Shown: positions 5,971 through 26,560 of the stretch, piece after piece | Numbering within the stretch: position 1 is the first letter of the stretch | Layout: every line of letters starts with the position of its first letter | Source of the DNA: Escherichia phage vB_EcoM-Pr121LW | Reading direction: 5' to 3' (one strand) | Sequence record: MH752840.1 | Length of the DNA: 64,000 bases | Notes under the pieces: generated by a model | The model's database searches: none | What the model was told of the DNA's origin: nothing | The model's input: the letters and a program-made list of their open reading frames with translations, nothing else | Made by a program: the position numbers and the translations under genes

Positions 5971-5977
5971 CTGTTTT

Positions 5978-6004
5978 GCCCTCGCTTCGGCGGGGGCTTT
6001 TTTG
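5978..6004 (+). terminator. rho-independent terminator
   Basis: gccctcgcttcggcgggggc hairpin followed by tttttt. Confidence 0.7.
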
Positions 6005-6010
6005 TTTGTA

Positions 6011-6039
6011 TTGCGTATTAACTCAAAATCTGGTAAAAT
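6011..6039 (+). promoter_or_regulatory. sigma70-type promoter (TTGCGT-17-TAAAAT, TG-extended)
   Basis: -35/-10 hexamers with 17-nt spacer; shares caaaatNtggtaaaata with promoter at 11409. Confidence 0.5.
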
Positions 6040-6070
6040 AACTATCATGATTGTTTAACCTGGAGGCACA

Positions 6071-6661
6071 ATGTTTTTATGGGAAAGGCCTAGATACCTT
6101 CCAGATATTAGATTGGAGCTGCTGGCAGATATTGTTACGTTTAAAAGTCCGTTTACAGGTAAAACGCAAAAAGTAACCTATGCCACACCTAACTGGAAAG
6201 GCACTTTGACGGTTTCCAATATCAGCGAGTCACAGTTGCTAGAGCTTAAGAGCTTTGTTGATCAGGTGTATAAAGATGGGAACATATTTCTCATTAAAAC
6301 TTACGGTCACTCAGTAACAGCTAATGAGCCAATCGCCCTTGGGCCTACTGGTAACGACGATTTTTTGAAGACGGTTGGGTGGGAGCCAAACAGAGACATA
6401 GCTAGAGCTGGGGATAAAATATCTGTCAATGATGAATTGAAAGTGGTAACAGCTCCAGTACGCAGCGATGGTGTTGGGTCTGCTGTTATAAGCATATCTC
6501 CAAGACTTAGAAAACCTATTGCCGCAGGGGATACTATGAAGATAATAACTCAATCCCCAAAGGGTAGGTTTCATATCAGAGATATTTATAAAATTAAGCA
6601 AAAAGTCGATGCTATGCAAAAAGGTGATAATATAGTTATCAACTTCTTTGAGGATTTCTAA
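6071..6661 (+). CDS. minor tail protein (tail-tip complex)
   Basis: ORF after terminator and promoter, RBS ggaggcacaATG; position upstream of K-like and J-like genes. Confidence 0.5.
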   Translation: MFLWERPRYLPDIRLELLADIVTFKSPFTGKTQKVTYATPNWKGTLTVSNISESQLLELKSFVDQVYKDGNIFLIKTYGHSVTANEPIALGPTGNDDFLKTVGWEPNRDIARAGDKISVNDELKVVTAPVRSDGVGSAVISISPRLRKPIAAGDTMKIITQSPKGRFHIRDIYKIKQKVDAMQKGDNIVINFFEDF

Positions 6662-6662
6662 G

Positions 6663-7214
6663 ATGATTAGAGCGCCATTAGATAATTTATTTCTTGAGAA
6701 GCTGGAGCTTGATGGTGTTGAGATCTTAATTGCTGCAAAGCTAGAGCTACCGACAGGGACTGTCAGGGTGTGCTCAGGCACTGGTGTTGTAGTAATTGAG
6801 GGTCAACATTTTATAGGGATAGGTGGATCAGCAACATTAACTGCTGTGTCTGAGAAAGATGCCACCAACTTCGGATCTGTGGTAGCAACATTGAACGGGT
6901 TTGATCCTAAGTATGTTGGTGATCTACTGAAGACGGAGTATTCTGGTTGTCGTGCCACGTTGTACATTACCGCTATGGAGAATGGTCTGCCTGTTACAAC
7001 TAATGGTTTGTTTGACGGCCTTATAACAGATATGGCTATTCAGACAGGTGAGAACAGTGCTTTGTCCATATCCATCTCTTCCATCTTCAACAGTTGGTTA
7101 AGAGGTTTTCCTTATCGGTACACGGAGGAAAGCCACAGCTCAAGAAACGATAATGACAGATTTTTTAAATATGTGGATCAGGTGGCGAGCCGCCCGATCA
7201 TTTGGGAGGTTTAA
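6663..7214 (+). CDS. minor tail protein (tail-tip complex)
   Basis: ATG at 6663 with RBS gagga, coupled to upstream stop; synteny with lambda-type tip genes. Confidence 0.5.
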   Translation: MIRAPLDNLFLEKLELDGVEILIAAKLELPTGTVRVCSGTGVVVIEGQHFIGIGGSATLTAVSEKDATNFGSVVATLNGFDPKYVGDLLKTEYSGCRATLYITAMENGLPVTTNGLFDGLITDMAIQTGENSALSISISSIFNSWLRGFPYRYTEESHSSRNDNDRFFKYVDQVASRPIIWEV

Positions 7215-12972: not shown

Positions 12973-13659
12973 ATGGCAGAGATTAAGTCGGATGTTAACC
13001 ACATCCACACTCTGCCAGATTTTGTTCAGGGGGGTCTTGACTACCTGCCTGGAGATTTTCTGGCTGAGAAGGTTAATTTAGTCACATTCTTAACCGTGTA
13101 CCTTAAAAGGTTGGAGGATGTTGATAAGATGCTGGTAGGTTTGGCTGAAGGAAGATTGCTTAACAATGCCAGCGGAAGATACCTTGACGAAGTTGGTAAT
13201 CAACTCGGTATTCTTAGGAATGGACTTTCAGATGCTGATTTTCGTGCCACACTAATTATTCAGCAGGCCGCAGCATCAAGGGGCGGGACTCGCGAAGATG
13301 TCATCTCCACCTTGCGACAATTGTTCGGAAGAGACAATTTCGATACGTGGAAAGGAGACAACTTCAGGTTTGACATAAATATTAGAAAAACTTGCTTTGA
13401 CATATTGCAGTCTATTGATCAGATCTTAGACATGCTACCACTGCCTTGTCATTTGCGTCTTACAGAATCGCAAGGGCAAGCTTTTGGTTTTGAAGGTGAC
13501 TCTACAGCTCTTGGCTTCGGATCAGTGTGGGAAGAAAACCAATTCGGAGTTGGTGGGCTGGCTACTTTGCTGTATGTTCCTGACGTAAGACCTGATTGGG
13601 ACACCACAACCATTTATTGTGAAAGCATTACAGTAAACGCAACTAGACAGGAGGGTTAA
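12973..13659 (+). CDS. structural protein (tail-associated)
   Basis: 228-aa ORF, RBS ggtgag, tightly packed in late operon. Confidence 0.45.
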   Translation: MAEIKSDVNHIHTLPDFVQGGLDYLPGDFLAEKVNLVTFLTVYLKRLEDVDKMLVGLAEGRLLNNASGRYLDEVGNQLGILRNGLSDADFRATLIIQQAAASRGGTREDVISTLRQLFGRDNFDTWKGDNFRFDINIRKTCFDILQSIDQILDMLPLPCHLRLTESQGQAFGFEGDSTALGFGSVWEENQFGVGGLATLLYVPDVRPDWDTTTIYCESITVNATRQEG

Positions 13660-15731
13660 TGGCAACAGCTGTTTTTAAACCTTACCGTGATTACTCTACA
13701 ATGGCTGCACGGTTTCATTACCGCACAGTTCAGGATACTGCCGTTCCTGGTAGGGATTATGATCATGTTGAGGGCGATATAACTATCCCAGTTGGGGCAA
13801 CCAGTATTGAGATTCCAGTGGAAATTGTTGACAAATTACCCAACAGGTTACCAAGAAGCTTCTTTATGGAGTTTTCATCAAAATCTCAAGGGGTGATGAT
13901 TGGAACACAAAGGGCGAAATGCACAATAGTTTCAGATGAGAATCTTGACAGGATATCTTGGGATACTGTCGAGGAGAGAATGTTTCACCCAAGATATTGG
14001 GTTACAACTACTCAGCAGACTGAAAGTACCTGTATTGTTGCAGATGACAACTGTTGTATTAACCGTTTAGTGTCAAGAACATATGGAGGTATGGCTGGGT
14101 GCATTTGGGAAACAGTTGACAAGTATGACCATTTCGGTATTGGGTTTGATGATCACTATGAGATGAGAAACACCAAGCTTTGGTTCAGAATGTCAATAAC
14201 CAATGCCAGCAACTTCTCCACTCCTGAAAAGATGATTATGACTGTAGACCTTGTTGATGGTACAATCATCTATGTTCCTTTAGCTCAATATGCTGTCAGC
14301 ATCTCAGAGGATAAGAATGTTGCAGAGATTCATATTGATTTCGAGGACTGCGTCGGGATGGATCAGAACAACAACATGATGGGTGTTGATCCTCGACAGG
14401 TGAGAAGAATTTTAATACCGCTTATGCCTAAAGACTGGGTAAGTAATAGCACAGACCCGAGAACGGAAAATGTAGAGTGTGAGTTGCGCCTAGATCTGCT
14501 TCAGCCAGACACGGGCTGGAAAATGATGCAACTTAACAATATTCAGGTTAAAGAGCACGACGTTGGGATCTGCACCGCATATGACGATATGTGGAACGTA
14601 TCTCCTTTAAGGGTGTTGAACAATATCAAGCGTCTGGGCTATACCGGAACCATAAACCATTATGTTGGTATGAGTCATTATTATGACTACACATGGTCAG
14701 GAACCCAATGGTCTATAAACAGAACAGGGGCGCTAAACGCTGCAGCTTATAAATGGCATGATGATTTTATGTACAATGCCAAACGACATAACTTCGACGT
14801 TATGCAGTCTGTAAGTTTTGAGCTTTACAGCGATGCCTGCCCGTTGGAATGGACCCAAAGAGACTGGAATGATAACTACGCTAAAACAGGATATACACCT
14901 TGTAGCTACCTCCTGTCTCCAACCATTGAAGAGGGTATGAATTTCCTTACTGCAGTATTTAAGAATTTTGCATCAGCCGCTATGAGAAACAACCTGCCAG
15001 TGATTATGCAGGTTGGTGAACCGTGGTGGTGGTACAATACCGATACTCGTAGACCTTGTATTTATGATTACCCTACAAAACAGGCGTTTTATGATGAGAC
15101 AGGCGAGTATGCCTTAGATATTGGGACTATTGACGATCCTAAAACTGGAGGTGTTTACGACAAGTATGTAGCATTTTGTCGTGGTAAGCTTGGCGCTCGT
15201 ATTGCGGCTATTTCAAAGGCAATAAAGGCGCATGCTGCATCAGCTAAGATGACAGCTCTGCTGTTTTTCCCAACCATTATGGAAACCGAACTTACGCAAA
15301 AGCTTAACCTTGCTGACCAATATAAAAAAGAAGCAGGTGCTCTTGATTTCTTCTGCACTGAGTGCTACGATTGGGTGATGCAGGGAGGTATTGAAAAGGC
15401 AAAAGAGTCTGTAAACATACCTATCGTTAAGTTAGGTTGGCAACCGTCTGAAATACAATACCTTGCAGGGTTCGTTCCTAGTAAAGAGCTTGCTCCGGTA
15501 TATGGATACGACCCAACTAGGAATTACCAAGAATTTTTATGGAGATGTATTTGCGGAAACATGGCAACTATAGAGTATAGATACCCTGAGGTAAAACAGT
15601 ATGTGTGGGCATACCCGCAAGTAATGTCTGACAGCATCACTGTTACCGCTAGAGATTCTACCGTGCTTCATATGGGGCAGGTTGCTCTGAAAGGGTATGT
15701 AGAAGATGTTGTCCCGCCAGACTTCTCATAA
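13659..15731 (+). CDS. structural protein with Calx-beta-like motif
   Basis: 690 aa; N-terminal DTAVPGRDYDHVEGDITIPVGATSIEIPVEIVD resembles Calx-beta repeat; start overlaps upstream stop. Confidence 0.5.
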   Translation: MATAVFKPYRDYSTMAARFHYRTVQDTAVPGRDYDHVEGDITIPVGATSIEIPVEIVDKLPNRLPRSFFMEFSSKSQGVMIGTQRAKCTIVSDENLDRISWDTVEERMFHPRYWVTTTQQTESTCIVADDNCCINRLVSRTYGGMAGCIWETVDKYDHFGIGFDDHYEMRNTKLWFRMSITNASNFSTPEKMIMTVDLVDGTIIYVPLAQYAVSISEDKNVAEIHIDFEDCVGMDQNNNMMGVDPRQVRRILIPLMPKDWVSNSTDPRTENVECELRLDLLQPDTGWKMMQLNNIQVKEHDVGICTAYDDMWNVSPLRVLNNIKRLGYTGTINHYVGMSHYYDYTWSGTQWSINRTGALNAAAYKWHDDFMYNAKRHNFDVMQSVSFELYSDACPLEWTQRDWNDNYAKTGYTPCSYLLSPTIEEGMNFLTAVFKNFASAAMRNNLPVIMQVGEPWWWYNTDTRRPCIYDYPTKQAFYDETGEYALDIGTIDDPKTGGVYDKYVAFCRGKLGARIAAISKAIKAHAASAKMTALLFFPTIMETELTQKLNLADQYKKEAGALDFFCTECYDWVMQGGIEKAKESVNIPIVKLGWQPSEIQYLAGFVPSKELAPVYGYDPTRNYQEFLWRCICGNMATIEYRYPEVKQYVWAYPQVMSDSITVTARDSTVLHMGQVALKGYVEDVVPPDFS

Positions 15732-15743
15732 TCAGGAGATAAA

Positions 15744-16784
15744 ATGTCAAAACCTAGTTTTCCATTAGAGATTTGGGCAGAGGAGGATCAGGTTCTGCCT
15801 AACACCCACAGACAGAACAGGCTACGCCCGATTGATGATTTGTGGAGAAAAGGTTGGGATCTTGGTCAAAAGCCCTCATGTGAAGAACTTAACTATATTT
15901 TCAATATGCTCGGAACTTGGGCAAAATATATTGCTGACGAGCAGATCCCCGCTCAAGAAGGCCGTTATCTGGTACGCGATAATAACTTGAGTGATCTTTT
16001 GAACATTCCTGTTGCCCGTAGAAACCTTGGGATTATTACTAAGGAAGAGGCAGACGCCAGGTATGTAAAAGTTACAGGTGATACAATGACAGGCCCACTG
16101 GGTTTGCAACGTATCAACTTTAAAGCTGCCGAGACAGATAAGGCTTGGATAGAGACAACTATTGGCCCAGATAAGACAACTCTCGACTTTGGGTTAAGTG
16201 ATAATACCGGGTCGTTTGATGATGGTGGTACATCTACAGTAGATGCGTTTCGTTGGAGATTCCAGCCAACTCAACCGGATATCAATCCGGAGTTCACTTT
16301 GATGTACCTTAACGCGATCACGGCTAACCGTGCGCTGTTGAAAGTGATAGGCAATGTTGAAGTTGTCGATAACATGAGGTGCAATAACCTTACTATCAGC
16401 AATACAGCAACATTCACCAACTGTAATGTGGCTAGTCAGTTGACGGCTGGGTCAGTGTATGTTAATGGTGGTACAAGTTGTGACAGTATGGTTGTAAGAA
16501 GTCAGCACTGTGTTGTCGGTAACAGAAATGTGGTGCGCTCTGTGAATGGAGTGACGGCTAACGGTAACGGTGATGTAACAATCACTATCCCGCAGACAGG
16601 TGTGCAAGACATCAGAATCGGTGCAAGACTTGTTGACGGCGTTTCTGAATCTCCAATTCGCAACGGCTACGTTGTCACAGGCTGGCATTTCGGTGACAAA
16701 AAAGAGATGCGTGGTTCAACCTACTGGGCAGGACCTTTACAAAAACTTGTAAATGGTCAATGGATCACTGTTAATTATGCATAG
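15744..16784 (+). CDS. tail fibre protein (paralog 1)
   Basis: 346 aa; paralog of 17799..18842 along full length; followed by Tfa chaperone gene. Confidence 0.6.
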   Translation: MSKPSFPLEIWAEEDQVLPNTHRQNRLRPIDDLWRKGWDLGQKPSCEELNYIFNMLGTWAKYIADEQIPAQEGRYLVRDNNLSDLLNIPVARRNLGIITKEEADARYVKVTGDTMTGPLGLQRINFKAAETDKAWIETTIGPDKTTLDFGLSDNTGSFDDGGTSTVDAFRWRFQPTQPDINPEFTLMYLNAITANRALLKVIGNVEVVDNMRCNNLTISNTATFTNCNVASQLTAGSVYVNGGTSCDSMVVRSQHCVVGNRNVVRSVNGVTANGNGDVTITIPQTGVQDIRIGARLVDGVSESPIRNGYVVTGWHFGDKKEMRGSTYWAGPLQKLVNGQWITVNYA

Positions 16785-16798
16785 ATCGGAGGACTAGC

Positions 16799-17383
16799 AT
16801 GAAAATACTTCAAGAGTTTAAACTTTACCAACCGGGATCTGGCGAATACCACCCTAACAAGGGAACCAAGGAGCTGACCCCTCAAGAGGTTGAGGATTAC
16901 ACCGCATACACTGGGTATTTTTTACGTAATGATGATGGCGATTGGTATGTGCAGTCACGAACATTGCGACAAGAAAATCCGGGTTGTATCTTCCTACTTG
17001 TTGACGAGAAGGGAATTCTTAAGACATCTACAGAAGAACCTGATGCCCTATGGCCTGCTCCAGGTCTTCGTGTGGTTATCGCCAAAAAAGAAGAGGTACC
17101 AGAAAACATTATGCTTCACCACGACGCTTTGCGTTTAGTTGGTGATGAATTTGTCACAGACAATGAATTCTTTGTTCAACAGGCAGAGGGTGTCATAGAG
17201 ACAGAACTTGCTTGGGCTACTGCTAGAATTGGTGCCTATCAAGACATGATTGACCTTGAATATGATCTTACTGATGACCAGAAACGTAACATCAGAGATT
17301 TGAAAATGTACAGGGTAAAACTTCTTGAAATAGATACATCTAAAGCCCCTGACATTTTCTTCCCGGAGCGACCTACCCTCTAA
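16799..17383 (+). CDS. tail fibre assembly protein (Tfa-like chaperone)
   Basis: C-terminus KMYRVKLLEIDTSKAPDIFFPERP matches conserved Tfa motif (lambda Tfa ...YRVLLNRVDTSTAPDIEWP). Confidence 0.7.
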   Translation: MKILQEFKLYQPGSGEYHPNKGTKELTPQEVEDYTAYTGYFLRNDDGDWYVQSRTLRQENPGCIFLLVDEKGILKTSTEEPDALWPAPGLRVVIAKKEEVPENIMLHHDALRLVGDEFVTDNEFFVQQAEGVIETELAWATARIGAYQDMIDLEYDLTDDQKRNIRDLKMYRVKLLEIDTSKAPDIFFPERPTL

Positions 17384-17394
17384 GAGGAGGTGTT

Positions 17395-17709
17395 GTGGAG
17401 TTGGATTTGGCGGCATTGTACGGTATCTGCATGGGTACCGTTGTCCCGATCTGTGTATGGGCTTTCAACCAGTGGCACACCAAATGGAAAGGCATTTCCA
17501 AGAGGTTGGATGAACTGGAGAAAGACCTCATCTTAGTGAAAAACAGTATGGTTACAAAAGATAAACTTGATTCCGTTATCGAGACCCGGTTAAGCAAGCT
17601 AGAGGCCGATATTAACGACCTTAAGCAGGATGTCAGGACAGATGTCTCCGGTATCCGAGCTGATGTACAAAAGATTTTGCACATGCTCGTAGAGCATAGT
17701 AAAAGGTAA
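17395..17709 (+). CDS. membrane-anchored coiled-coil protein (i-spanin-like or fibre-associated)
   Basis: GTG start with RBS gaggagg; N-terminal TM helix LAALYGICMGTVVPICVWAF followed by heptad-rich helix. Confidence 0.4.
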   Translation: MELDLAALYGICMGTVVPICVWAFNQWHTKWKGISKRLDELEKDLILVKNSMVTKDKLDSVIETRLSKLEADINDLKQDVRTDVSGIRADVQKILHMLVEHSKR

Positions 17710-17798
17710 ACAAAGGTCAGGACGGAAAGGACTCCGTTCTTGCATTTTGTTCACTAAAGTGTTAAAATAGTCCTAAGGAATTTTCTCAGGAGAACGTG

Positions 17799-18842
17799 AT
17801 GACTAAACCAGTTATCCCTCTTGATATTTGGGCCAATCAGGATGTTGTGCTTGAAAATACGGGAGAATTGAATAAGTCCCAACCAAAAAAAGAAGAGAGA
17901 CTGAAAGGTTGGGATATGACACAAAGAGTGGCATGTGAAGTTGTTAACTTTGAACTTCACATGCTTTCTGCGTGGTTAAAGCATTTAACAGAAGATGTTG
18001 TCCCAGGATGGGATAATAGATTCTTAAGGGTCACTAATAATCTGGCAGACGTTCCAGACAAAGCTGCTGCACGTCAAGTTCTCAATGTATACTCGCCTGA
18101 AGAAATGGATGACCTTTATGTTGACAAGGCTGGAGACACAATGATCCAGACTCAAACTTTAGGTCTTCAAAGAATCGAGTTTGCATCCGCGTCAACAGAC
18201 AATGCGGCGATATACACCACCATAACTTCAGACAAGACGATGATGGATTTCTGGATTATGGACAACATCGGTGGTGCTGACGGCACAGACCTTGATGATC
18301 CCTCTCACCAAATAGACGGTTTCCGTTGGAGATTTCAACCTTCTGGTGGGCAGCCTGTGTTTTCAGCTATGAAGCTCAATGCTATAACTGCCAACCGTGC
18401 AAGACTGGCTATCCAAGGAAATCTTGAATGCAACGACGCAAAAAGTTCCTCTACAAATGCCAATGCAGCTACTATACCAAGAGCCACTGTTAATGGACAA
18501 CAATCCTGTGGAAGCGCTCAAATAGGTGGAAGAGTTGATTGCAACGATGAAACCGTCAGGGGCCAATATGCAACAGTTGGTGGAAGAAACGTGGTCCGCA
18601 GGGTAAATGGTAACAGCGCAGACGGTAGTGGTAACCTTACTATCCCTATGCCCAGCAGAGGGGTTGATGATGTGAGGATAGCAAACCGTTTCAAAACCAC
18701 CTACAGAGAGTCAAGAGTCTACCCTGGACATGTGATGTGCTCGGGTAACTACGCTTATAAACACCCTTATCAAGGTGATTACTGGACAGGTGCTATCCAA
18801 AAACTTGTAAATGGTCAATGGATCACTATATCTTATGCTTAA
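17799..18842 (+). CDS. tail fibre protein (paralog 2)
   Basis: 347 aa from ATG 17799; N-terminus TKPVIPLDIWANQD and C-terminus QKLVNGQWITISYA parallel paralog 1; last 30 nt before the final codons identical to 16741-16770. Confidence 0.6.
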   Translation: MTKPVIPLDIWANQDVVLENTGELNKSQPKKEERLKGWDMTQRVACEVVNFELHMLSAWLKHLTEDVVPGWDNRFLRVTNNLADVPDKAAARQVLNVYSPEEMDDLYVDKAGDTMIQTQTLGLQRIEFASASTDNAAIYTTITSDKTMMDFWIMDNIGGADGTDLDDPSHQIDGFRWRFQPSGGQPVFSAMKLNAITANRARLAIQGNLECNDAKSSSTNANAATIPRATVNGQQSCGSAQIGGRVDCNDETVRGQYATVGGRNVVRRVNGNSADGSGNLTIPMPSRGVDDVRIANRFKTTYRESRVYPGHVMCSGNYAYKHPYQGDYWTGAIQKLVNGQWITISYA

Positions 18843-18853
18843 AAAGAGGGTAA

Positions 18854-19120
18854 ATGAAACTAACTCAGTTTTTATGGGGACTGGTTGCGGCATCTGATGA
18901 CCCTACGAAAGTGTCCCAATCTAAGCTATGGTCAAACATAGGTATGGCGGTGATGACTGGGGTGTTTATTCATATGGGGTATAATGATACGCTTCCTGAA
19001 TGGTATGCGTGGATATATGCGCCTTCGGTAGCTTGCCCCCAGCTTATTAGCAAATTCATCTCGCTCCGGTGGGGTTGCCAGCACCCTGACCACGTTAAAA
19101 ACGAAGAGCAAAAAGCTTAA
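18854..19120 (+). CDS. small membrane protein
   Basis: 88 aa, hydrophobic segment IGMAVMTGVFIHMGY; RBS agagggtaaATG. Confidence 0.4.
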   Translation: MKLTQFLWGLVAASDDPTKVSQSKLWSNIGMAVMTGVFIHMGYNDTLPEWYAWIYAPSVACPQLISKFISLRWGCQHPDHVKNEEQKA

Positions 19121-19129
19121 GGAGAGATC

Positions 19130-20875
19130 ATGGCGCAAGACATGACAAGCTTTGAGCAGGCGGTAGATCAAGTAATTGTTGATTCTGAACGTTTGCACCT
19201 GATTGTCAACGGTAACGCTGTGGATGAGGTTGTCGTAGAGGATGGGACCACCATCCCTACGGTACGAAAAGCCATGCTTGACACCCTTTATTTTAAAACG
19301 CCGCCGATCCCTTGGGCGTATGGTGCATCCACAACAGTTTTTAACCAGCTATATGAGTTTAAAGGGGACACAGGGCCCCAGTGGTGGTACGCTCCCGCAG
19401 CATCAAAATCTAACCCGGTTAGAATGCCAGCAGATCCTTCACAATCCCCAAACTGGAGATTATATACTGACTCTGCAGTAATGGCAAAATACTACGCAAA
19501 ACTTAACAGCCCAAGGTTCGAAGGTGACCCGCGAGCACCTACACCCCCAATGGACGATAAGTCAGAGTCTATAGCAAACACAGAGTTTGTTGTTGACTAT
19601 GTTGATAGCATATTTAAAGCCATGGAGGGGATGAAAGTTACTGTAGGATCTTTGGTGGTAAAAGGTCTTACAGAACTCGCTAACACCATAGTTGGTGGCA
19701 CCCTTACCTTACATGGACCTGTTAATGGGGCAGATTCTACTGCACGCTTTAGGAATCTAATCCTCACGGCAAATACTTCTACACTTACTTTTGCGTGGAG
19801 CGATCCTAAGCATGCAGACTGGAGAAGTACAGAGCTGCAACCTCATGAAGTGTCCACCCACAGGGTTATAGCTGACACTATAACTTCTGGGAAACCAGTG
19901 GCTAATAATAACGATGTACATTTTGATGGTCTGGGTAATAACTTTTTTGACTACGTGTACATTCGTGGTAATGCCATGAAGGCAGCAACCGAACCGACAT
20001 TGCAGGTCGATGGGACCACCAGGGTTAAGAACCTTGAGGTGACAGGTACCGTTACAGGGATAACCTACTCTGTTGATGGCACCATGATCTACCCTAGCTA
20101 TATCGAAAGCACGGGTGATGCATTGATAAATGGCGATTTGGAGGTTGGCGGGTCTGTAGTTATTCGAGGTACAGCCTCTATCCAAAATATAGCTCTGAAT
20201 ACTCTAAGGGTCAATGAGCGTGCAACTTTTGAAGGAGAAGGGCTTACAGCCAATAAAGGTACAATTACCGAGCTGACCTCCACCACTTTGACTGCAACAA
20301 CTGCAAACTCTGAAAACTGCAACATTACCAGAAACTTGCAGGTAAATGGAGATGTTAGTTTAAACGCCGCAGGGACTGGCACCACCTACCTTCACAATCT
20401 TGAAATATCCGGCACAGTGACCGGGTGGCTGCCAGACTTCTCTAATGTCAACTTTGTCTGTAATGGTATTAACTCCAGTGGTAAGATAACCACCTCTCAA
20501 GAAATTGAGGCTGGTAAAACCATCACTGCCCCTACTTTCCACGCAGGGAAGGTAGATTTCGATTTAGAGGAGGTTGACGCGTCCAGTGGGACATGGACAC
20601 CTAACGGGCAGGCCAGTATGTATGTTGTCCACGCTAAAGGGGATTTTACAATAGGGCAGTGGCCTGGGACATCAGCGGAAGATAAACCTTATCCATTTAC
20701 TGCGGTTATCTATGTAATTCAGGATGCTGTAGGTCACAACGTGACTTTGCACGATAAGTATGCTATCCTGTCGGCAACACCTGTTATTAACAACAAGGCT
20801 AACAGTGTTACCTTGCTGCAATTAACGTATTGTGGTGTTGGTGATATCGTAGATGTAGTAATTGCACAACGTTAA
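19130..20875 (+). CDS. tail fibre/tailspike-like protein
   Basis: 581 aa, RBS aaggagagatcATG, late-module position; repetitive Gly/Thr-rich beta-like sequence; terminator follows. Confidence 0.5.
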   Translation: MAQDMTSFEQAVDQVIVDSERLHLIVNGNAVDEVVVEDGTTIPTVRKAMLDTLYFKTPPIPWAYGASTTVFNQLYEFKGDTGPQWWYAPAASKSNPVRMPADPSQSPNWRLYTDSAVMAKYYAKLNSPRFEGDPRAPTPPMDDKSESIANTEFVVDYVDSIFKAMEGMKVTVGSLVVKGLTELANTIVGGTLTLHGPVNGADSTARFRNLILTANTSTLTFAWSDPKHADWRSTELQPHEVSTHRVIADTITSGKPVANNNDVHFDGLGNNFFDYVYIRGNAMKAATEPTLQVDGTTRVKNLEVTGTVTGITYSVDGTMIYPSYIESTGDALINGDLEVGGSVVIRGTASIQNIALNTLRVNERATFEGEGLTANKGTITELTSTTLTATTANSENCNITRNLQVNGDVSLNAAGTGTTYLHNLEISGTVTGWLPDFSNVNFVCNGINSSGKITTSQEIEAGKTITAPTFHAGKVDFDLEEVDASSGTWTPNGQASMYVVHAKGDFTIGQWPGTSAEDKPYPFTAVIYVIQDAVGHNVTLHDKYAILSATPVINNKANSVTLLQLTYCGVGDIVDVVIAQR

Positions 20876-20923: not shown

Positions 20924-23900
20924 ATGCTTCCAATCCCTTTGCTAAAACTTGGTCGTCATTTCCTCGATAAGAGGGGTGGAATTAAGGAACTTGCTGTTCT
21001 GTCATACCCAATAGACAACAGTGATGGTACAAGCAATACAGTATCCTATGTAAATAGCTTAGCTATACTTTTTGATGATGGTCAGCTTAATATTACTGGC
21101 TATAATAGGTTCGGAGAGTGTCGGACTGGAGATCTTGATACAATAAACTATCCTAATGAGGCAGCTTGGAACGTAGACCATGTTTGGAGAGCTGACCGTG
21201 CATTTGTAATCCGCACATTCGATAATAAATTTTTCTATATTGGTTGCACAGCTGGTCTTATCGGATCTGAGGCAGCAGGTGGAAACGATGTTTGTGTCAG
21301 AGAGTGGACACCTTTGCCGGAACAGATTGTAACAGGGTTGCATTTGGACACCCATCCTGAGAGACTTGTTGAAGTAATGGGTGGCGTAAACAATACAGTG
21401 TGGGTAATTGCTGCACCAGAGGCTGATGGTATGCTTCACCTGTACGGCTCTGGCAATAATACTTACGGCTCTCTTCATGTTGACAAAAATCAACACGCTA
21501 CTCCAGTTAAGATTGGTGAAACATCTGAAAGTCCAGAGACAGGTCCTTGGAAAAATCCAAGAATTAATTGTGAAGTTCATGACAACTCGGTTATTTTTGG
21601 TGGTCCTAACGGATTCTGGATTGCAGGTTACGATTTCTTAAGAAATAACAGCAAAAACGCACTAGTTTATCCAGCCGAGCATGTGACTCTTGACCAGTTT
21701 AAAGGCATCCCAGTGGGCGAGACATGGAAAGGGTTCATGTGTGGGCCTAATGGTGCAATTATAGCCACAGAAAGGATGCACAAACCTGATGACCAACAGC
21801 TTGTTAATGTGTTTTATGGTCAGGATGTTTGGGGTGACGACACGTGGAGAAGCCTTAACATCACCTATACCCATGAAGTAATTATGGCTCGCGGGTACGG
21901 GACTAGTGGAATTTTCTTCAATAATGGTACAAAACAGTACCGTGGTTTCTCCAGAAACCTGTGTAACGATATTGGTGCTCAATCTGCTAATAATAATCCT
22001 AGGGCCAATTTTATTCATTACAGAGCGCTGGCAACAGCTAAGTTTGTTGAACAGACAGAGCCAGTAAGCTGGACAGAAAGCGTTTATTTTCAAGGGATCC
22101 ACAGGGAAGGTTTCTTAGGCACATTTTGTGTGGTAAATGGAAAGCTTTGGTGGTCAGGAATACCACGTGGTAGTTTTTCAGGATCTAATAACCTCTTTGG
22201 CGGCAGACTTAACAGCCAAGGGTTCACAGAGATTCCGGAGAATTGGTATAAAAATGTCCCGGTAGATAGCTGGGGTATCGAAGACATCTTTGATGTCAAT
22301 GGTGTGAGCAATGCTAGCAACATTTACATTGGAGATACTGTCAAGATGAAATTGAAACCTCAGCCGGAGGGTGCTACGTTCATTATTGACAAGATTGAGT
22401 TGGTAAATGCTGCAGGCACTGTTGTTACAGATGCAAACTATCAGTTCTCCACTAACTGGAACCATGGTGGTGCTAACGAAGTTGTGGTTACCCAGTATAA
22501 CCGTAACATCAACAGACGTGGTTTGTATTCTATCAAGATCACCTACCATGACAAGCATGGCACTGGAAGAACCTATACGACAAGGACTTTGAACTGGAAC
22601 ACTATAGTTCCTGCGTATCCGTCCGACGGCAAGTGGCATACCGTTGGTAGAAACAAGCAGTTCCATGTTAACGATACTGTATACTTTGGGCTGAATGGGA
22701 CCCAGCCTGCAGTAGAAGGGGATACATCGTATATGGTCAGACTCCACAGAATGGATGCTGGATCAGTCACTTATGATGTGACCCAAGAGATCTACGATCA
22801 AAGACGCGCCACGTATGACAATATTGTGAAAACACAAGCCTTGTGGGAGTTCAATCCCAATGGCAAGGGTGGTAAAATGTTGCAGGTTAATGAGCAGAAC
22901 GGAACGTCGTTGACTGTTCACGAACACCCAGACCCTTGGCCTGATCCTGGAAAACCTCACCCGGGAGCTCGTACACTGAAAATTGTCAGCCATGATGCAG
23001 GATATTTCGGAATACGCTGGGAAGCCACAGTAAGATATGCCGACGGGACAACAAACAACATAGGGATCACCCTTGGTGGCACTAGTGAGGATAACTCACT
23101 GAAAATTGCCTATACCCCTAGAGGCATCTCTATTGATAATATGGATGTTGTTCGCAACGGTTACGGTGATGTAAATGTCAAAGTTACTCTTGGTGAACAT
23201 CTCGGTGGGGAAAGGATCATCATGTATGCCTTTGATCATGATCCTCGCACCAACGGAACCTATGCAAATCAGGCGTGGAGTTACCTGATAAATGCACCTG
23301 AGCCGAATACTAAAGAGTTTTATTACGGTATGAAGCGGGATGTGTGCAAGAAAACAGGGACACATGATTGGATTGCTATCTGCGTTAAAGATGAACGAAC
23401 CGCTTGGGACGAGCCTGTTAACCGATGGTTCATAGGGATTCCCACCAGAAGTGATAAGTATGTCGCAGAATATATTGTGTGCATGGGCGGCACCAACCTG
23501 AACTTGTGTTGGAACGAGGATGCAAATAAATACTCTGATTATGACTATATGAGGGATATCTCTTGCAATCAGTGGTTTAGCCAATCAACAGGTTACCCTC
23601 CAAGACAGGCGAGAGTAAACCCTGCAATCTTCACAGACACGCAGGTTTTCTTGACAAAACAGGCCAACGAGGTTCAGACATTCAAGAATAAATACGATCC
23701 TAACAAGTGGTTCTACAACTGTTACGGCGCATTTTTCTGGGGACCTGGTGAGTTACCTGGTGGAGGATCTTGCTTGAATGAGGCAACTTACGCCAGTGAC
23801 TACATCATGGGGCAGGTCAAGAAGTATAAGATAATCCCCGGTCCTGAGACTTTGGGCAATGCCGTTGACCCTTATATCATCATGACTGCACTGAGATCAA

Positions 23901-26560
23901 ACATGGATGGGACATCCATGTCCATGCAAATTCCGGTAACAAACGGATACAAACGTGTTGTGATGATCATTAAGTGCGACCTGATAGGTAAACAAGTTCT
24001 TGCAGAAAACGGGACATCCACACATCCTTTTGAGATCGCTCTACACTATCAGTTTGCTGACTCACCTTTTGCAGGGGATAAGAGAATATCTGATACAGAC
24101 GCACAGCGTTGTAAGAAAGTATTGTTGGGTGCAGGTTGGTGGTGGTATGAGTTTGATTTAACAGATAAATTCACCGACACGTCTAAAGTTGTAACAGGAC
24201 TTCGTCTAGACTTTGGCGAGAACATGCACAAAGCTGTTTGTGATGGCACCTATGGTGACCCTACAATATACCTAAAATATGTTTCTTTTGAGCATCCGGA
24301 AGATGTTGTCTACGGTCCAAAACTGAGATTGTTTGGCAGCTGGATTGCAAAAGATAGGGTAGGTATGGGTAAGAAGGTAAGAGGGTTCTTGGTTGATGCA
24401 GGAACAGAAGACATGCTGGTTAATGCAGTATGGCCTGAATTACCTGGGACTCAGTGGGACAACTCAGCCAAATCTGTAAACTGGTTTAACATTCATAGGG
24501 CCATGTGGACCACTAACTGCTACTTGTGGAGAGAGCTTAACGATCAGGCCTTTGGCTTCAGCGATGGTAGAAGGATGGCGATCATTTGCTGGACAACACT
24601 GCAAAGATGTTATGACCATAACTATGAGATTGGAGGCAGGGAATGGAAAAATATCAGGGACAGAATCATAACCAATTTTGCAGACGACAACGGTGGCGGA
24701 GCACATAACTTTGGCACAAGCCGACTCATCCATTTGAACGGATCCTCAGCCTACAAGAAAGAAGGATACTCTGGGTCCATGATTGAGTGGGGTCTGGTAA
24801 AAGATGCTCGTGTGTTGATGGGTCAGCAACTTGCTGCTGCAATAGGGCCGAACGCAGTACAATCTGTTAAACCAGCGTGGTTCGATATCCCATTATGGTC
24901 ATCTGGAACACCAGGAACTGCTGCAATCAACCCTGCCACTGGGGATTTGGAAATCTCCTGGGAAGACTTGAAGCAGGTCGGTGGTTGGGACAAAACAGGG
25001 TATCAGGTTCAGTGGTGGAGAGCTGACGGATCTTTAGCCGCTGATGAGTTTGTTAAGGACAATTTCTACACCATGTCCTCTGCAAAAGCACAGGAATTGT
25101 TCGGTCAGGCAACTCCGTCAACGATCACCATGTCCATGTGCTGTAAAGACAACAGGACTGGAGCTTTGGGGCCAAGGGTTGCTAAGGTTTTCTCAGGTAT
25201 TAAATGGAATCCCTCTGTTCAAAGTGTTTCATGGAAGCAAATAGGTGATAACAAGCTGCTAGTTACCCCCGCCTGTCAGTTCAACGCAACTCTTAACGTT
25301 GATCCTGCTGCTGCGGCAAACTCAGCTAAAGCTTCTGACTTCTCTGTGTCTAACACTGCTATGGCAGATGTGAGGAAGATTGACACGCTGAACGCCAGAA
25401 TTACCTGTAAAAACACTTATGGCACATTCCAGATCATCAACAACTTCACAGATGCTGATTCTAAGGTAGTGAGGACAGCAAGCCAGACTCTGAGTTTAGG
25501 AACTCTGGCCTATGCAGCCCTGATCACTGAACAGTCGGCAACACTCCAAGGAGGTGGTGTAGGCAAGTCTATTACAACACCTGTGTGGAAGCCAAATGAG
25601 TGGGTTGTGTTTGATTTGACTGTGGACTTCTCCAGTGATAATAACTGGACATGGGTAAGGGATTGCTTGTCACAACTGATGGGTGGTCCAAGCTCCGTTA
25701 GTGATAGCCACGACTCCACTGACCCGAGTGTGTTTCAGGTGGGTAAAACTCACCCGGAGACTGGAGCAACTTTGCCTGACAGGAAGTATGCTTTGGTTTG
25801 CATCTCTTACGGAAAAGCAGATGTCACCTTCTCAGGAACACACACTTATAACGGTACATATAACTTCTCAAGGAAGTATAGTCTCAAGGCAGGGAACATT
25901 ATAGATGAGGTTGGTCCGTTATATAACCCTGGCAACGGGATAGGGATTGTAGGCGGCAAACTGCAGATGCAGGAACCTTCTATTACTCCTTCCAACGTGT
26001 CTGGGATCAGGAAGACTTGGGAAAGTAACAATACTGGCATCGCAACTGTGGATGCTACCACCGGACTGGTAACATTTAAAGCTCCCGGTGATGTCACTAT
26101 AACGTTTATAGTTACTGATGATGCAGGGCGCAAAACGTCTTCAACATCTTTTACTGTCAAACAGATGGCACCACAGTGGAGAATGTGGATAGGTACAGCA
26201 ACAAACGGGGCATACCCTAATCCGGCAGGTACTTCTGGTATGAAGACTTTCTCTACAAGCGAACCGATGGAGTACGGCAGCGGTCCTAAGGTAGGACAGA
26301 TGGTATACTTTGGTGCGTATATTCCTGAAATTATAGGGCTTCCGAGAAGTCAGCTTCAGTTGCTGTTTGGGGCTGGTGTTGACGATCTTGCCACTTTCGG
26401 GTATAGCGACAACATCGAGGCTGCAAGGAGTTCAGGATGGGTAGGGTTCAGAATGGAGTCTGGAAAGGAAGGCAGGATTCTAGGGACAGCCTCTATAGGT
26501 GTTATGTTCCCTGGTGACCAGCAGTATCGCCTGAAAGCCTACGCAACTTTCTCTCTTTAA
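20924..26560 (+). CDS. large structural protein (1878 aa) with Ig-like Big_2-type domain
   Basis: Longest ORF in window; near C-terminus ITPSNVSGIRKTWESNNTGIATVDATTGLVTFKAPGDVTITFIVTDDAGRKTSSTSFTV resembles bacterial Ig-like group 2 domain; ends at bidirectional terminator. Confidence 0.6.
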   Translation: MLPIPLLKLGRHFLDKRGGIKELAVLSYPIDNSDGTSNTVSYVNSLAILFDDGQLNITGYNRFGECRTGDLDTINYPNEAAWNVDHVWRADRAFVIRTFDNKFFYIGCTAGLIGSEAAGGNDVCVREWTPLPEQIVTGLHLDTHPERLVEVMGGVNNTVWVIAAPEADGMLHLYGSGNNTYGSLHVDKNQHATPVKIGETSESPETGPWKNPRINCEVHDNSVIFGGPNGFWIAGYDFLRNNSKNALVYPAEHVTLDQFKGIPVGETWKGFMCGPNGAIIATERMHKPDDQQLVNVFYGQDVWGDDTWRSLNITYTHEVIMARGYGTSGIFFNNGTKQYRGFSRNLCNDIGAQSANNNPRANFIHYRALATAKFVEQTEPVSWTESVYFQGIHREGFLGTFCVVNGKLWWSGIPRGSFSGSNNLFGGRLNSQGFTEIPENWYKNVPVDSWGIEDIFDVNGVSNASNIYIGDTVKMKLKPQPEGATFIIDKIELVNAAGTVVTDANYQFSTNWNHGGANEVVVTQYNRNINRRGLYSIKITYHDKHGTGRTYTTRTLNWNTIVPAYPSDGKWHTVGRNKQFHVNDTVYFGLNGTQPAVEGDTSYMVRLHRMDAGSVTYDVTQEIYDQRRATYDNIVKTQALWEFNPNGKGGKMLQVNEQNGTSLTVHEHPDPWPDPGKPHPGARTLKIVSHDAGYFGIRWEATVRYADGTTNNIGITLGGTSEDNSLKIAYTPRGISIDNMDVVRNGYGDVNVKVTLGEHLGGERIIMYAFDHDPRTNGTYANQAWSYLINAPEPNTKEFYYGMKRDVCKKTGTHDWIAICVKDERTAWDEPVNRWFIGIPTRSDKYVAEYIVCMGGTNLNLCWNEDANKYSDYDYMRDISCNQWFSQSTGYPPRQARVNPAIFTDTQVFLTKQANEVQTFKNKYDPNKWFYNCYGAFFWGPGELPGGGSCLNEATYASDYIMGQVKKYKIIPGPETLGNAVDPYIIMTALRSNMDGTSMSMQIPVTNGYKRVVMIIKCDLIGKQVLAENGTSTHPFEIALHYQFADSPFAGDKRISDTDAQRCKKVLLGAGWWWYEFDLTDKFTDTSKVVTGLRLDFGENMHKAVCDGTYGDPTIYLKYVSFEHPEDVVYGPKLRLFGSWIAKDRVGMGKKVRGFLVDAGTEDMLVNAVWPELPGTQWDNSAKSVNWFNIHRAMWTTNCYLWRELNDQAFGFSDGRRMAIICWTTLQRCYDHNYEIGGREWKNIRDRIITNFADDNGGGAHNFGTSRLIHLNGSSAYKKEGYSGSMIEWGLVKDARVLMGQQLAAAIGPNAVQSVKPAWFDIPLWSSGTPGTAAINPATGDLEISWEDLKQVGGWDKTGYQVQWWRADGSLAADEFVKDNFYTMSSAKAQELFGQATPSTITMSMCCKDNRTGALGPRVAKVFSGIKWNPSVQSVSWKQIGDNKLLVTPACQFNATLNVDPAAAANSAKASDFSVSNTAMADVRKIDTLNARITCKNTYGTFQIINNFTDADSKVVRTASQTLSLGTLAYAALITEQSATLQGGGVGKSITTPVWKPNEWVVFDLTVDFSSDNNWTWVRDCLSQLMGGPSSVSDSHDSTDPSVFQVGKTHPETGATLPDRKYALVCISYGKADVTFSGTHTYNGTYNFSRKYSLKAGNIIDEVGPLYNPGNGIGIVGGKLQMQEPSITPSNVSGIRKTWESNNTGIATVDATTGLVTFKAPGDVTITFIVTDDAGRKTSSTSFTVKQMAPQWRMWIGTATNGAYPNPAGTSGMKTFSTSEPMEYGSGPKVGQMVYFGAYIPEIIGLPRSQLQLLFGAGVDDLATFGYSDNIEAARSSGWVGFRMESGKEGRILGTASIGVMFPGDQQYRLKAYATFSL

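Follow-up and report, generated by a model that had tools for sequence, protein, structure and literature searches.

Paralogous short tail fibre genes with one Tfa chaperone in an rV5-like phage: layout and evolution of the locus

Two paralogous short tail fibre genes of the kind carried by rV5-like phages, here termed A and B, were identified together with a single Tfa chaperone gene in the window, that is, in the whole 64,000-nucleotide stretch of Escherichia phage vB_EcoM-Pr121LW that was analysed. We consider it likely that A and B encode two short fibres which would differ in fine specificity for the LPS core and would be assembled by the one Tfa, that B is an old extra copy, and that the 3' ends of the two genes have been exchanged by gene conversion. 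The gene-conversion evidence, the replacement of a membrane-protein gene by B and the existence of an uncultured sister lineage are not mentioned in the published accounts of the locus that were consulted. What is added is modest and bears on the evolution of the pair and the arrangement of the locus.

The locus and its two short tail fibres

Nucleotide search placed the window in Vequintavirus, as an rV5-like E. coli phage with roughly 98% identity to more than 100 Vequintavirus genomes. Annotation and synteny of the region agree with rV5 and the BASEL phages, and the gene order gp34 - A - Tfa - gp31 - B - gp29 - gp28 recurs unchanged in rV5, MaxBurger and further genomes (Table 1). The counterparts of A, Tfa and B in rV5 (gp33, gp32 and gp30) and in the BASEL phages are the same genes, at 96–99% amino-acid identity and in the same order and sizes, and the locus is without difference. 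Several of its properties are already known. In rV5 the paralog pair was reported at 42.3% identity, with the suggestion of two LPS chemotypes, alongside its presence in virions and the predicted promoter P030 (Kropinski et al. 2013, PMC3606486). For the BASEL Vequintavirus phages, Maffei et al. (2021, PMC8594841) described two paralogous short tail fibres and one chaperone, homologous to Mu GpS/GpU, and noted that phi92-like phages have a single copy.

Table 1. Positions of the features of the short tail fibre region in the window
Feature	Position	Strand	Evidence
rV5 gp34 homologue, neighbour upstream of A: 690-aa structural protein with Calx-beta and N4-type non-contractile tail sheath (NCTSP) domains	13659..15731	+	Pfam PF23845 1.7e-79, PF23844 6.7e-13; rV5 annotation
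Short tail fibre paralog A, rV5 gp33 homologue, 346 aa	15744..16784	+	phrog_4465; phiTE and Mu matches; synteny
30-nt run in A, identical to 18798-18827, encoding QKLVNGQWIT; assigned as gene-conversion tract	16740..16769	+	
Tfa chaperone, Mu GpU-like, rV5 gp32 homologue, 194 aa	16799..17383	+	Caudo_TAP; phrog_136
104-aa protein, rV5 gp31 (M1)	17395..17709	+	phrog_5345 1.1e-48
Terminator-like hairpin, then TTGCATTTTG, within 89-nt spacer 5' of B	17719..17740	+	
Late-promoter-like motif TGTTAAAATA, ~30 nt 5' of B	17760..17769	+	corresponds to predicted rV5 P030
Short tail fibre paralog B, rV5 gp30 homologue, 347 aa, extra copy	17799..18842	+	phrog_4465; 9cuy_c match; synteny
30-nt run in B, identical to 16740-16769	18798..18827	+	
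88-aa small protein, rV5 gp29 (M3), annotated membrane protein	18854..19120	+	phrog_1322 2.7e-32
581-aa fibre protein, rV5 gp28 homologue	19130..20875	+	phrog_4549; 9cuy_g

The similarity of the two ORFs pointed out in the initial annotation was found to be that of true paralogs, 43% identical along their full length (E 2e-95). Both matched the profile phrog_4465, 'tail fiber protein', end to end: A over residues 1–346 (4.3e-171; the profile has 342 positions) and B over residues 1–347 (2.5e-164). B starts at the ATG at 17799, with AGGAG 7 nt before it. In a phmmer search of the PDB set, residues 1–108 of A and 1–83 of B matched the phiTE short tail fibre 9cuy_c (1.4e-19 and 1.9e-8 respectively, by sequence only), and this domain is homologous to the baseplate-attachment domain of the phiTE short tail fibre (STF), of which residues 3–92 bind wedge protein 1 in the structure (PDB 9CUY/9MJN, PMC11972413). 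Fibre III of phi92, assigned to gp147, sits on the wedge protein gp145 (PMC13450770); its homology to A is drawn via the BASEL paper (PMC8594841) and the phi92-like phage muut, not via the gp147 sequence. At the other end, the C-terminal ~60 residues of A matched the Mu fibre S (5yvq; whole-sequence E 1.9e-6, best domain 286–343 on 440–501 with an i-Evalue of 0.0064). B alone gave no Mu S match at E<=1 in the same PDB search and is linked to Mu S only through its alignment with A. On these matches, A and B are identified as baseplate short tail fibres of the phiTE STF and phi92 fibre III kind and not as generic fibres, and each would consist of an N-terminal domain for anchoring to the baseplate wedge, then a shaft, then a C-terminal tip of the Mu GpS kind.

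Fibres of this kind point downward from the wedge periphery in phiTE and phi92, as six trimers per baseplate (PMC11972413, PMC13450770). Those phages have one such fibre each, as opposed to the two paralogs here, and the phiTE STF carries a long coiled coil and Ig-like domains instead of a Mu-type tip. A further likeness is to T4 gp12, the baseplate short fibre that binds the LPS core irreversibly, whose role is analogous. HHpred similarity of rV5 gp30 and gp33 to gp12 has been reported (PMC3606486). Neither A nor B matched gp12 chains at E<=1 with phmmer against the PDB set, HHpred being the more sensitive method, and the chaperone here is of the Caudo_TAP family, unlike gp57A of T4.

Both copies are functional as judged by selective constraint, with dN/dS of 0.029 for A and 0.061 for B, and no degraded copy of either was observed among the relatives examined. 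Compared with A, B has a distinct conserved type of N-terminal domain and more variation in the shaft. Its tip loops are altered in Vequintavirus, where the central loops read TGWHFGDKKEMRGS in B and CSGNYAYKHPYQGD in A. The C-terminal ~61–62 residues are the least variable region of each protein. Presence of A and B in virions is indicated by work on the near-identical phage rV5: Kropinski et al. (2013, PMC3606486) report in their main text that gp30, gp32 and gp33 were all detected when the whole virion was analysed by proteomics; peptides and masses for the three were not found in the accessible part of the rV5 MS supplement. The two objections foreseen in the initial annotation, absence of both paralogs from virions and decay of one into a pseudogene in relatives, are thereby in effect answered. 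Several indels separate the two shafts, for which reason A/B heterotrimers are judged unlikely. An AlphaFold2 monomer model of B, built on a 10-sequence alignment, was unusable (mean pLDDT 31.5, pTM 0.19).

Sequence exchange between the 3' ends

The identical stretch reported near the ends of the two genes was measured at exactly 30 nt, CAAAAACTTGTAAATGGTCAATGGATCACT. The next-longest in-register run of identity between A and B is 12 nt, and a 13-nt out-of-register match (16385/18632) was treated as chance. Out of the conserved degenerate codons across the whole pair only 36% are identical, and under local codon usage the chance of all 10 QKLVNGQWIT codons matching is 1.3e-4. At the protein level 16 of the last 20 residues are identical.

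The shared termini and the run could be explained by purifying selection on a conserved peptide, coupled to a codon preference or a nucleotide signal, with no exchange taking place. QKLVNGQW is in fact conserved in protein even among single-copy relatives, Av-05 has CTTGTGAATGGTCAATGG, in which 17 of 18 bases are identical to the window run, and a 24-nt core of the run is unchanged in the divergent genome L010. This explanation is nevertheless disfavoured and in our judgement very improbable, given the codon-usage probability above and the existence of synonymous variants of the run within the genus, which mean that its bases are not fixed by selection. In L018 and L020 both A and B read CAAAAACTGGTCAATGGTCAGTGGATCAC, whereas both copies in the window read ...CTTGTAAATGGTCAA...; the two versions of the run are separated by three synonymous differences, and all three are common to both paralogs. 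Selection alone is further argued against by perfect tracts of 110 nt in L022 and 30 nt in L021, which lie at different positions in a deeper sister lineage (L017, L021 and L022), inside 3' regions that are 77–84% identical around them. Perfect A/B tracts were also found in L017 (23 and 19 nt) and L018 (29 nt), in addition to the 30 nt of the window, and the tracts of L017 are again at different positions.

The extreme ends of the proteins point in the same direction. The last residues co-vary by lineage, being NYA/SYA in the window, QTL in both copies of L017, L021 and L022, and NLN in Av-05 and R7. In L017, A and B share 87% identity over their C-terminal 61 residues, as against 61% (A) and 35% (B) with their orthologues in the window. 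Paralogs within a genome thus share synonymous states that differ between the orthologues of different genomes. From these shared states and the sister-lineage tracts of 23–110 nt we conclude that the 3' ends of A and B have been repeatedly homogenised by gene conversion, as had been suggested from the 30-nt run. The C-terminus of B resembles that of A because of this homogenisation, and continued conversion would keep the extreme C-terminus of B A-like. The conversion has probably been kept by selection, since both fibres would depend on one chaperone.

Origin and surroundings of paralog B

By synteny, A is orthologous in position to the one STF that Avunavirus, Seunavirus and phi92-like phages have. 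In the single-copy phages Av-05, R7 and GAP31 the order is STF-Tfa-M1-M2-M3-fibre, and B occupies the slot of M2, a 157-aa membrane-protein gene in these relatives. No M2 remnant was found in the window, the best tblastn hit (E 0.09) being at an unrelated place. A is the ancestral gene, conserved in position, and B is an old additional copy that has its own terminator-like hairpin and late promoter and took the place of the 157-aa membrane-protein gene downstream of Tfa.

Membrane-protein ORFs had been proposed to follow each fibre gene, and this applies only loosely. The 104-aa ORF (gp31, M1) has one clear hydrophobic segment at residues 3–24, followed by a long charged helix-like region, but it comes after Tfa and not after A; the 88-aa ORF (gp29, M3) does follow B but is weakly hydrophobic. 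M1 is 32–33% identical to homologues at the same position, beside Tfa, in Av-05, R7 and GAP31, and gave only sub-threshold Pfam matches, for example to XhlA at E 0.016. M3 is 51–56% identical to its homologues in the same three phages and adjoins fibre genes in single-copy relatives too. The possibility that the two ORFs are paralogs of each other or chaperones was rejected; they have no mutual similarity (E 12). The conserved gene order indicates that B is not the product of duplication of a fibre-chaperone-membrane module and that the small flanking ORFs are old, unrelated neighbours.

The spacer 5' of B is conserved in part. The TTGCATTTTG tail of the terminator-like hairpin is nearly invariant across six genomes of three lineages, with one change, in L018; RNAalifold applied to the spacer did not recover the hairpin. 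The promoter-like motif corresponds to P030, which is given as ...AAAGTGTTAAAATAGTCC... among the predicted late promoters in Table S4 of the rV5 paper supplement (PMC3606486). GTG(C/T)TAAAATA is kept in the aligned Vequintavirus and sister-lineage genomes, with ATG at the first three bases in L010 and L018. A scan for sigma-70 promoters found 11 sites, about as many as the 10.0 expected from shuffled sequence.

Horizontal acquisition of B, with a phage that has a related short fibre as donor and with later patchwise conversion by A, was also considered. The N-terminal domain of B is 40% identical to A and 44–47% identical to outgroups, and as it is no closer to A than to outgroups, B may have come from an unsampled relative; shaft identities among A, B and the outgroups are all similar (44–50%). 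B also came with its own promoter-bearing spacer and displaced a resident gene. Against this, no closer relative of B than the A/B family of the two-paralog lineages was found in the phage collection or in a set of 5.8 billion proteins, and every genome seen to have B has A as well, with B in an unvarying slot. A and B further share a ~32-column gap and the motifs FRWRFQP and LNAITANRA relative to outgroups, which conversion could also explain. On balance we regard acquisition from elsewhere as unlikely. An IMG/VR scan with B returned 4 loci only, all of them close relatives.

One chaperone and two fibres

The ORF behind A was confirmed as a Tfa. It matched Pfam Caudo_TAP (PF02413) at 45.2 bits, with a gathering cut-off of 22.1 (1.3e-11; residues 122–192 on profile positions 61–130), and phrog_136 at 3.6e-36. 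It starts 15 nt after the stop of A, and B lies 416 nt further downstream, beyond gp31. In line with the initial annotation, it is the only Tfa in the genome by tblastn and profile search. A single place was found for each listed Vequintavirus record (tblastn E<=1), with 371 places in 366 records overall.

Across relatives, identity of the tip tracks identity of Tfa with a rho of 0.68–0.81, compared with 0.38 for the shaft, the P-values being nominal because the pairs are phylogenetically non-independent. The argument is carried by discordant pairs: R7 and GAP31 are 77% identical in the shaft, 44% in the tip and 16–28% in Tfa, and Av-05 and R7 are ~25% identical to muut in the shaft and ~65% in the tip. 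These comparisons indicate that the last ~60 residues of the fibre and Tfa are exchanged as one module. The joint movement of tip and chaperone makes it plausible that a single Tfa serves both A and B. TfaMu is needed for production of the Mu fibre and remains on the fibre tip. The Mu GpU-like Tfa encoded between A and B would similarly fold and trimerise the tip, and would probably remain on the fibre; the detection of gp32 in rV5 virions parallels the behaviour of TfaMu. The resemblance to Mu lies in the C-terminal ~60 residues of A, which match Mu S, and in a chaperone of the same Pfam family. In Mu, two alternative tips (S, S') each have their own Tfa (U, U'), and inversion of the G segment selects which of the two pairs is expressed. 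Unlike in Mu, both fibres are here full genes, both are reported in (rV5) virions and there is one Tfa, and the N-terminal attachment domain of A and B is not Mu-like.

B might alternatively be independent of Tfa, its tip folding unaided or helped by some other factor of host or phage origin; the shared C-terminal peptide would then belong to the architecture of the fibre itself and would not reflect a constraint linked to the chaperone. The Alteromonas phage A5 system is known to include a fibre that needs no chaperone, and the central tip loops of B are strongly unlike those of A and of all Tfa-associated relatives. B also lies downstream of the terminator-like hairpin with a promoter of its own, and would thereby be transcriptionally separable from the A-Tfa unit. 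However, the tip-flanking motifs and last 20 residues of B are nearly identical to those of A, its terminal residues co-vary with A by lineage alongside the Tfa type of the lineage, and in the sister lineage B carries essentially the whole A tip. The low variability of its C-terminal 62 residues likewise argues against independence, which we find somewhat unlikely.

If one Tfa does serve both fibres, it may constrain them in a way that shapes the pair. Conversion would keep the C-terminal parts of both paralogs matched to the chaperone, leaving only the shaft and tip loops free to diverge towards different receptors. The conserved B-type N-terminal domain may in addition dock at a second site, so that rV5-like baseplates would have two distinct rings of short fibres. 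This proposal is put forward tentatively; neither the Tfa constraint nor the two-ring docking has been described for the rV5-like group.

Among coliphages, those of the rV5 type are some of the most often isolated, and they are candidate agents of therapy and biocontrol. Irreversible attachment to the LPS core, the last step of adsorption, is probably determined by their short fibres. For host-range engineering, a tip swap would probably have to include the Tfa that goes with it, and a new tip built into one gene could be lost again through conversion by its paralog.

The initial annotation regarded the set of candidate receptor-binding proteins as unusually rich. This did not hold, as such a set, described as a 'nanosized Swiss army knife', is the published norm for Vequintavirinae (PMC8594841). 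One member of the set, the gp28 homologue, matched 9cuy_g, a 'Putative tail fiber protein' of the phiTE baseplate entry, over residues 8–325 (3.2e-76), and this counterpart is probably the phiTE long tail fibre.

Gene content of the fibre locus

At 97.7–98.7% nucleotide identity, region 15000-20000 matched over 100 rV5-like coliphages (genus Vequintavirus); in the nucleotide search, 111 records spanned at least 80% of it. Open reading frames were assigned by comparison with the annotated records of rV5 and of the BASEL phage MaxBurger. The two short tail fibre ORFs, A and B, that the initial annotation had called paralogous were 43% identical over their full length (E 2e-95), and both matched PHROG 4465 end to end. 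As it had also proposed, only the first is followed by a chaperone gene: this ORF encodes a genuine Tfa, scoring 45.2 bits with Pfam Caudo_TAP where the cut-off is 22.1, and tblastn (E<=1) located Tfa at one place per listed Vequintavirus genome. Of the membrane-protein ORFs that it had described behind each fibre gene, M1, which follows the Tfa gene, has a clear N-terminal hydrophobic segment; M3 is only weakly hydrophobic and unrelated to M1.

Features of the fibre locus and its flanks
Feature	Position	rV5 homologue	Remark
ORF upstream of A	13659-15731		N4-type non-contractile tail sheath TIM-barrel domain, PF23845, 1.7e-79
A	15744-16784	gp33	annotated 'short tail fiber'
identical 30-nt run in A	16740-16769
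Tfa	16799-17383	gp32	annotated 'tail fiber chaperone'
M1	17395-17709	gp31	small ORF
terminator-like hairpin	17719-17740		in 89-nt spacer
late-promoter motif TGTTAAAATA	17760-17769		in 89-nt spacer
B	17799-18842	gp30	annotated 'short tail fiber'
identical 30-nt run in B	18798-18827
M3	18854-19120	gp29	small ORF
fibre protein gene	19130-20875	gp28
ORF	20924-26560	gp27

N4 glycan receptor binding is connected, in a 2026 preprint, with a domain of a Vequintavirus tail fibre protein that is homologous to N4 gp65; this protein may or may not be the product of the ORF upstream of A. The gp28 homologue gave no significant match in the local Pfam copy and was homologous to the second fibre protein of the phiTE baseplate entry (9cuy_g, 3e-76); in precomputed annotations gp28 homologues carry the newer families PF26208/PF26209 (Phage_phiTE_241_N/C).

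The arrangement has already been published for rV5-like phages. Kropinski et al. 2013 (PMC3606486) described gp30 and gp33 as fibre proteins of similar size with 42.3% identity and HHpred likeness to T4 gp12, raised the possibility that two LPS chemotypes are recognised, and reported gp30, gp32 and gp33 in the rV5 virion proteome. For Vequintavirinae sensu stricto, Maffei et al. 2021 (PMC8594841) reported two paralogous short tail fibres with one chaperone, which they regard as homologues of the one short fibre in phi92-like phages and, ultimately, of Mu GpS/GpU; they also described a multi-fibre 'Swiss army knife' typical of the group. The observation is confirmed and its interpretation largely right, but as written it is therefore not new, and the receptor-binding set, which had been called unusually rich, is not unusual for the subfamily. 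The 3'-end conversion, the tip/Tfa module and the replacement of M2 described below are useful additions in detail and do not amount to a new kind of system.

Position and origin of the second copy

Two copies were found by tblastn in Vequintavirus records only (115-116) and one copy everywhere else. In the single-copy relatives compared, Av-05 (Avunavirus) and R7 and GAP31 (Seunavirus type), the order is short tail fibre, Tfa, M1 (104 aa), M2 (157 aa), M3 (~88 aa) and a gp28-like fibre. M1 has one hydrophobic segment and a helix-like region, and M2 several hydrophobic segments. M2 was not found in the window, where its slot is occupied exactly by B and an 89-nt spacer. As the first fibre gene shares its position with that of the single-copy relatives while B lies in the M2 slot, A is by position the orthologue of their single short fibre. 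The addition thus comprised the fibre ORF only, and no fibre-chaperone-membrane module was added. B may have arisen either by duplication in this lineage or from an unsampled relative. Divergent lineages keep the promoter motif of the spacer and the T-rich tail that follows its hairpin, and a late promoter, P030, was predicted directly upstream of gene 30 in rV5 (Table S4 of Kropinski et al. 2013, PMC3606486).

The three-gene block of small predicted membrane proteins between Tfa and the next fibre spans 5638-6701, 5686-6755 and 5650-6719 in the single-copy Vequintavirinae loci L003, L004 (R7) and L005; M1 and M3 have counterparts in the window, and M2 is lost from two-paralog lineages. That M1-M3 act in lysis or in superinfection exclusion is no more than a guess.

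Divergence and exchange between the two copies

Divergence differed by region. The B-type N-terminal domain is 60% identical between lineages and 37-44% identical to the A/outgroup type, the change of RPIDDLW to QPxK(E/D)xR being an example. In the shaft and middle, orthologues are closer than paralogs. This reverses in the C-terminal 61 residues, where A and B of the sister-lineage locus L017 are 87% identical to each other, whereas L017 A is only 61% identical to A of the window and L017 B only 35% to B of the window. The last residues are characteristic of the lineage in A and B alike, being NYA/SYA for the genus of the window and QTL for the sister lineage; Av-05 and R7 end in NLN. Purifying selection acts on A (dN/dS 0.029) as well as on B (0.061), as calculated over 10-12 genomes, and no genome examined had either copy degraded to a pseudogene. 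A separate count, over 14 genomes, gave B about twice the variable sites of A; the C-terminal 61-62 residues varied least (A 8%, B 13%) and residues 201-285 most (A 27%, B 42%).

The identical run ahead of the last codons, which encodes QKLVNGQWIT, is exactly 30 nt. Among conserved degenerate codons, 51/143 were identical between A and B. With codons used as in the neighbouring late genes, the probability that all ten codons of the run match is 1.3e-4, so the run exceeds chance. Both copies in the window read CAA AAA CTT GTA AAT GGT CAA TGG ATC ACT, whereas both copies in L018 and L020, of a closer metagenomic group, read CAA AAA CTG GTC AAT GGT CAG TGG ATC AC; this amounts to three synonymous differences between genomes and zero between paralogs. 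In one genome of the genus, L011, the same AAT-to-AAC change is present in both copies. As the run is polymorphic within the genus, its bases are not fixed by selection. Identical tracts between A and B also vary among genomes of the sister lineage: L022 has one of 110 nt, L021 one of 30 nt and L017 two, of 23 and 19 nt, within surrounding 3' sequence that is 77-84% identical. Such a pattern is the mark of gene conversion recurring between A and B, which supports the recombination or conversion first suggested from the run.

The fibre tip and its chaperone

The N-terminal ~80-110 residues of A and B matched the short tail fibre chain of the phiTE virion (9CUY; 1.4e-19 and 1.9e-8, respectively), in which residues 3-92 form the joint binding wedge protein 1 (PMC11972413). 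Phi92 has one short fibre, fibre III, which is attributed to gp147 and sits as six trimers on wedge protein gp145 (PMC13450770); its homology to A is drawn from the BASEL paper (PMC8594841) and the phi92-like phage muut. The final ~60 residues of A matched Mu fibre S in 5YVQ, to which B gave no direct match.

Across eight genomes, identity of the C-terminal 61 residues followed Tfa identity (Spearman 0.68-0.81, with P nominal as pairs are non-independent), compared with 0.38 for the remainder of the fibre. Discordant pairs are stronger evidence than this correlation. Between R7 and GAP31, identity is 77% for the body but falls to 44% for the tip and 16-28% for Tfa, while for Av-05/R7 and muut the values are ~25%, ~65% and 37-47%. 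Together these indicate that tip and Tfa move as one module. TfaMu is needed to make the Mu fibre and remains bound to its tip, in line with gp32 in rV5 virions (PMC3606486). We infer that a single Tfa serves both fibres. In this genus the central tip loops differ (CSGNYAYKHPYQGD in B, TGWHFGDKKEMRGS in A), but B retains the flanks and the final 20 residues (16/20 identical). Structure prediction of B failed (pLDDT 31.5) and gave no support in either direction. The last ~58 residues of A were 57-59% identical to fibre C-termini of unrelated ~52-kb Salmonella myoviruses, and this sequence likeness suggests that exchange of the tip module reaches well beyond Vequintavirinae.

Metagenomic relatives and database records

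A protein search with B followed by context look-ups gave two further two-copy groups. The closer one (L018-L020) is 87% identical to the window in A, 79% in B and 78% in Tfa, measured on L018. For the deeper sister lineage of Vequintavirus (L017, L021 and L022) the values are 73%, 49% and 45%, measured on L017, with a Tfa of 205-208 aa; no match above 80% nucleotide identity was present in the phage collection. These uncultured contigs of up to 135 kb (Logan SRR24653873 and SRR32732957; ENA ERZ28596771) probably represent an undescribed genus-level clade. They retain the two-fibre layout with an extended M3 (118-126 aa), and the clusters to which their fibre proteins belong comprise 159-172 sequences.

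At this locus, 16-22 GenBank 'Campylobacter phage' records (MG0656xx; host Campylobacter jejuni) were ~98% identical to rV5-like E. coli phages, and their host assignment looks doubtful. Salmonella phage vB_Sen_SG_WM_RUS_R7 (PQ002170.1) carries Demerecviridae in its taxonomy line; its fibre locus is collinear with that of Seunavirus GAP31 (Vequintavirinae) at 67-95% protein identity, and the record is probably misclassified.
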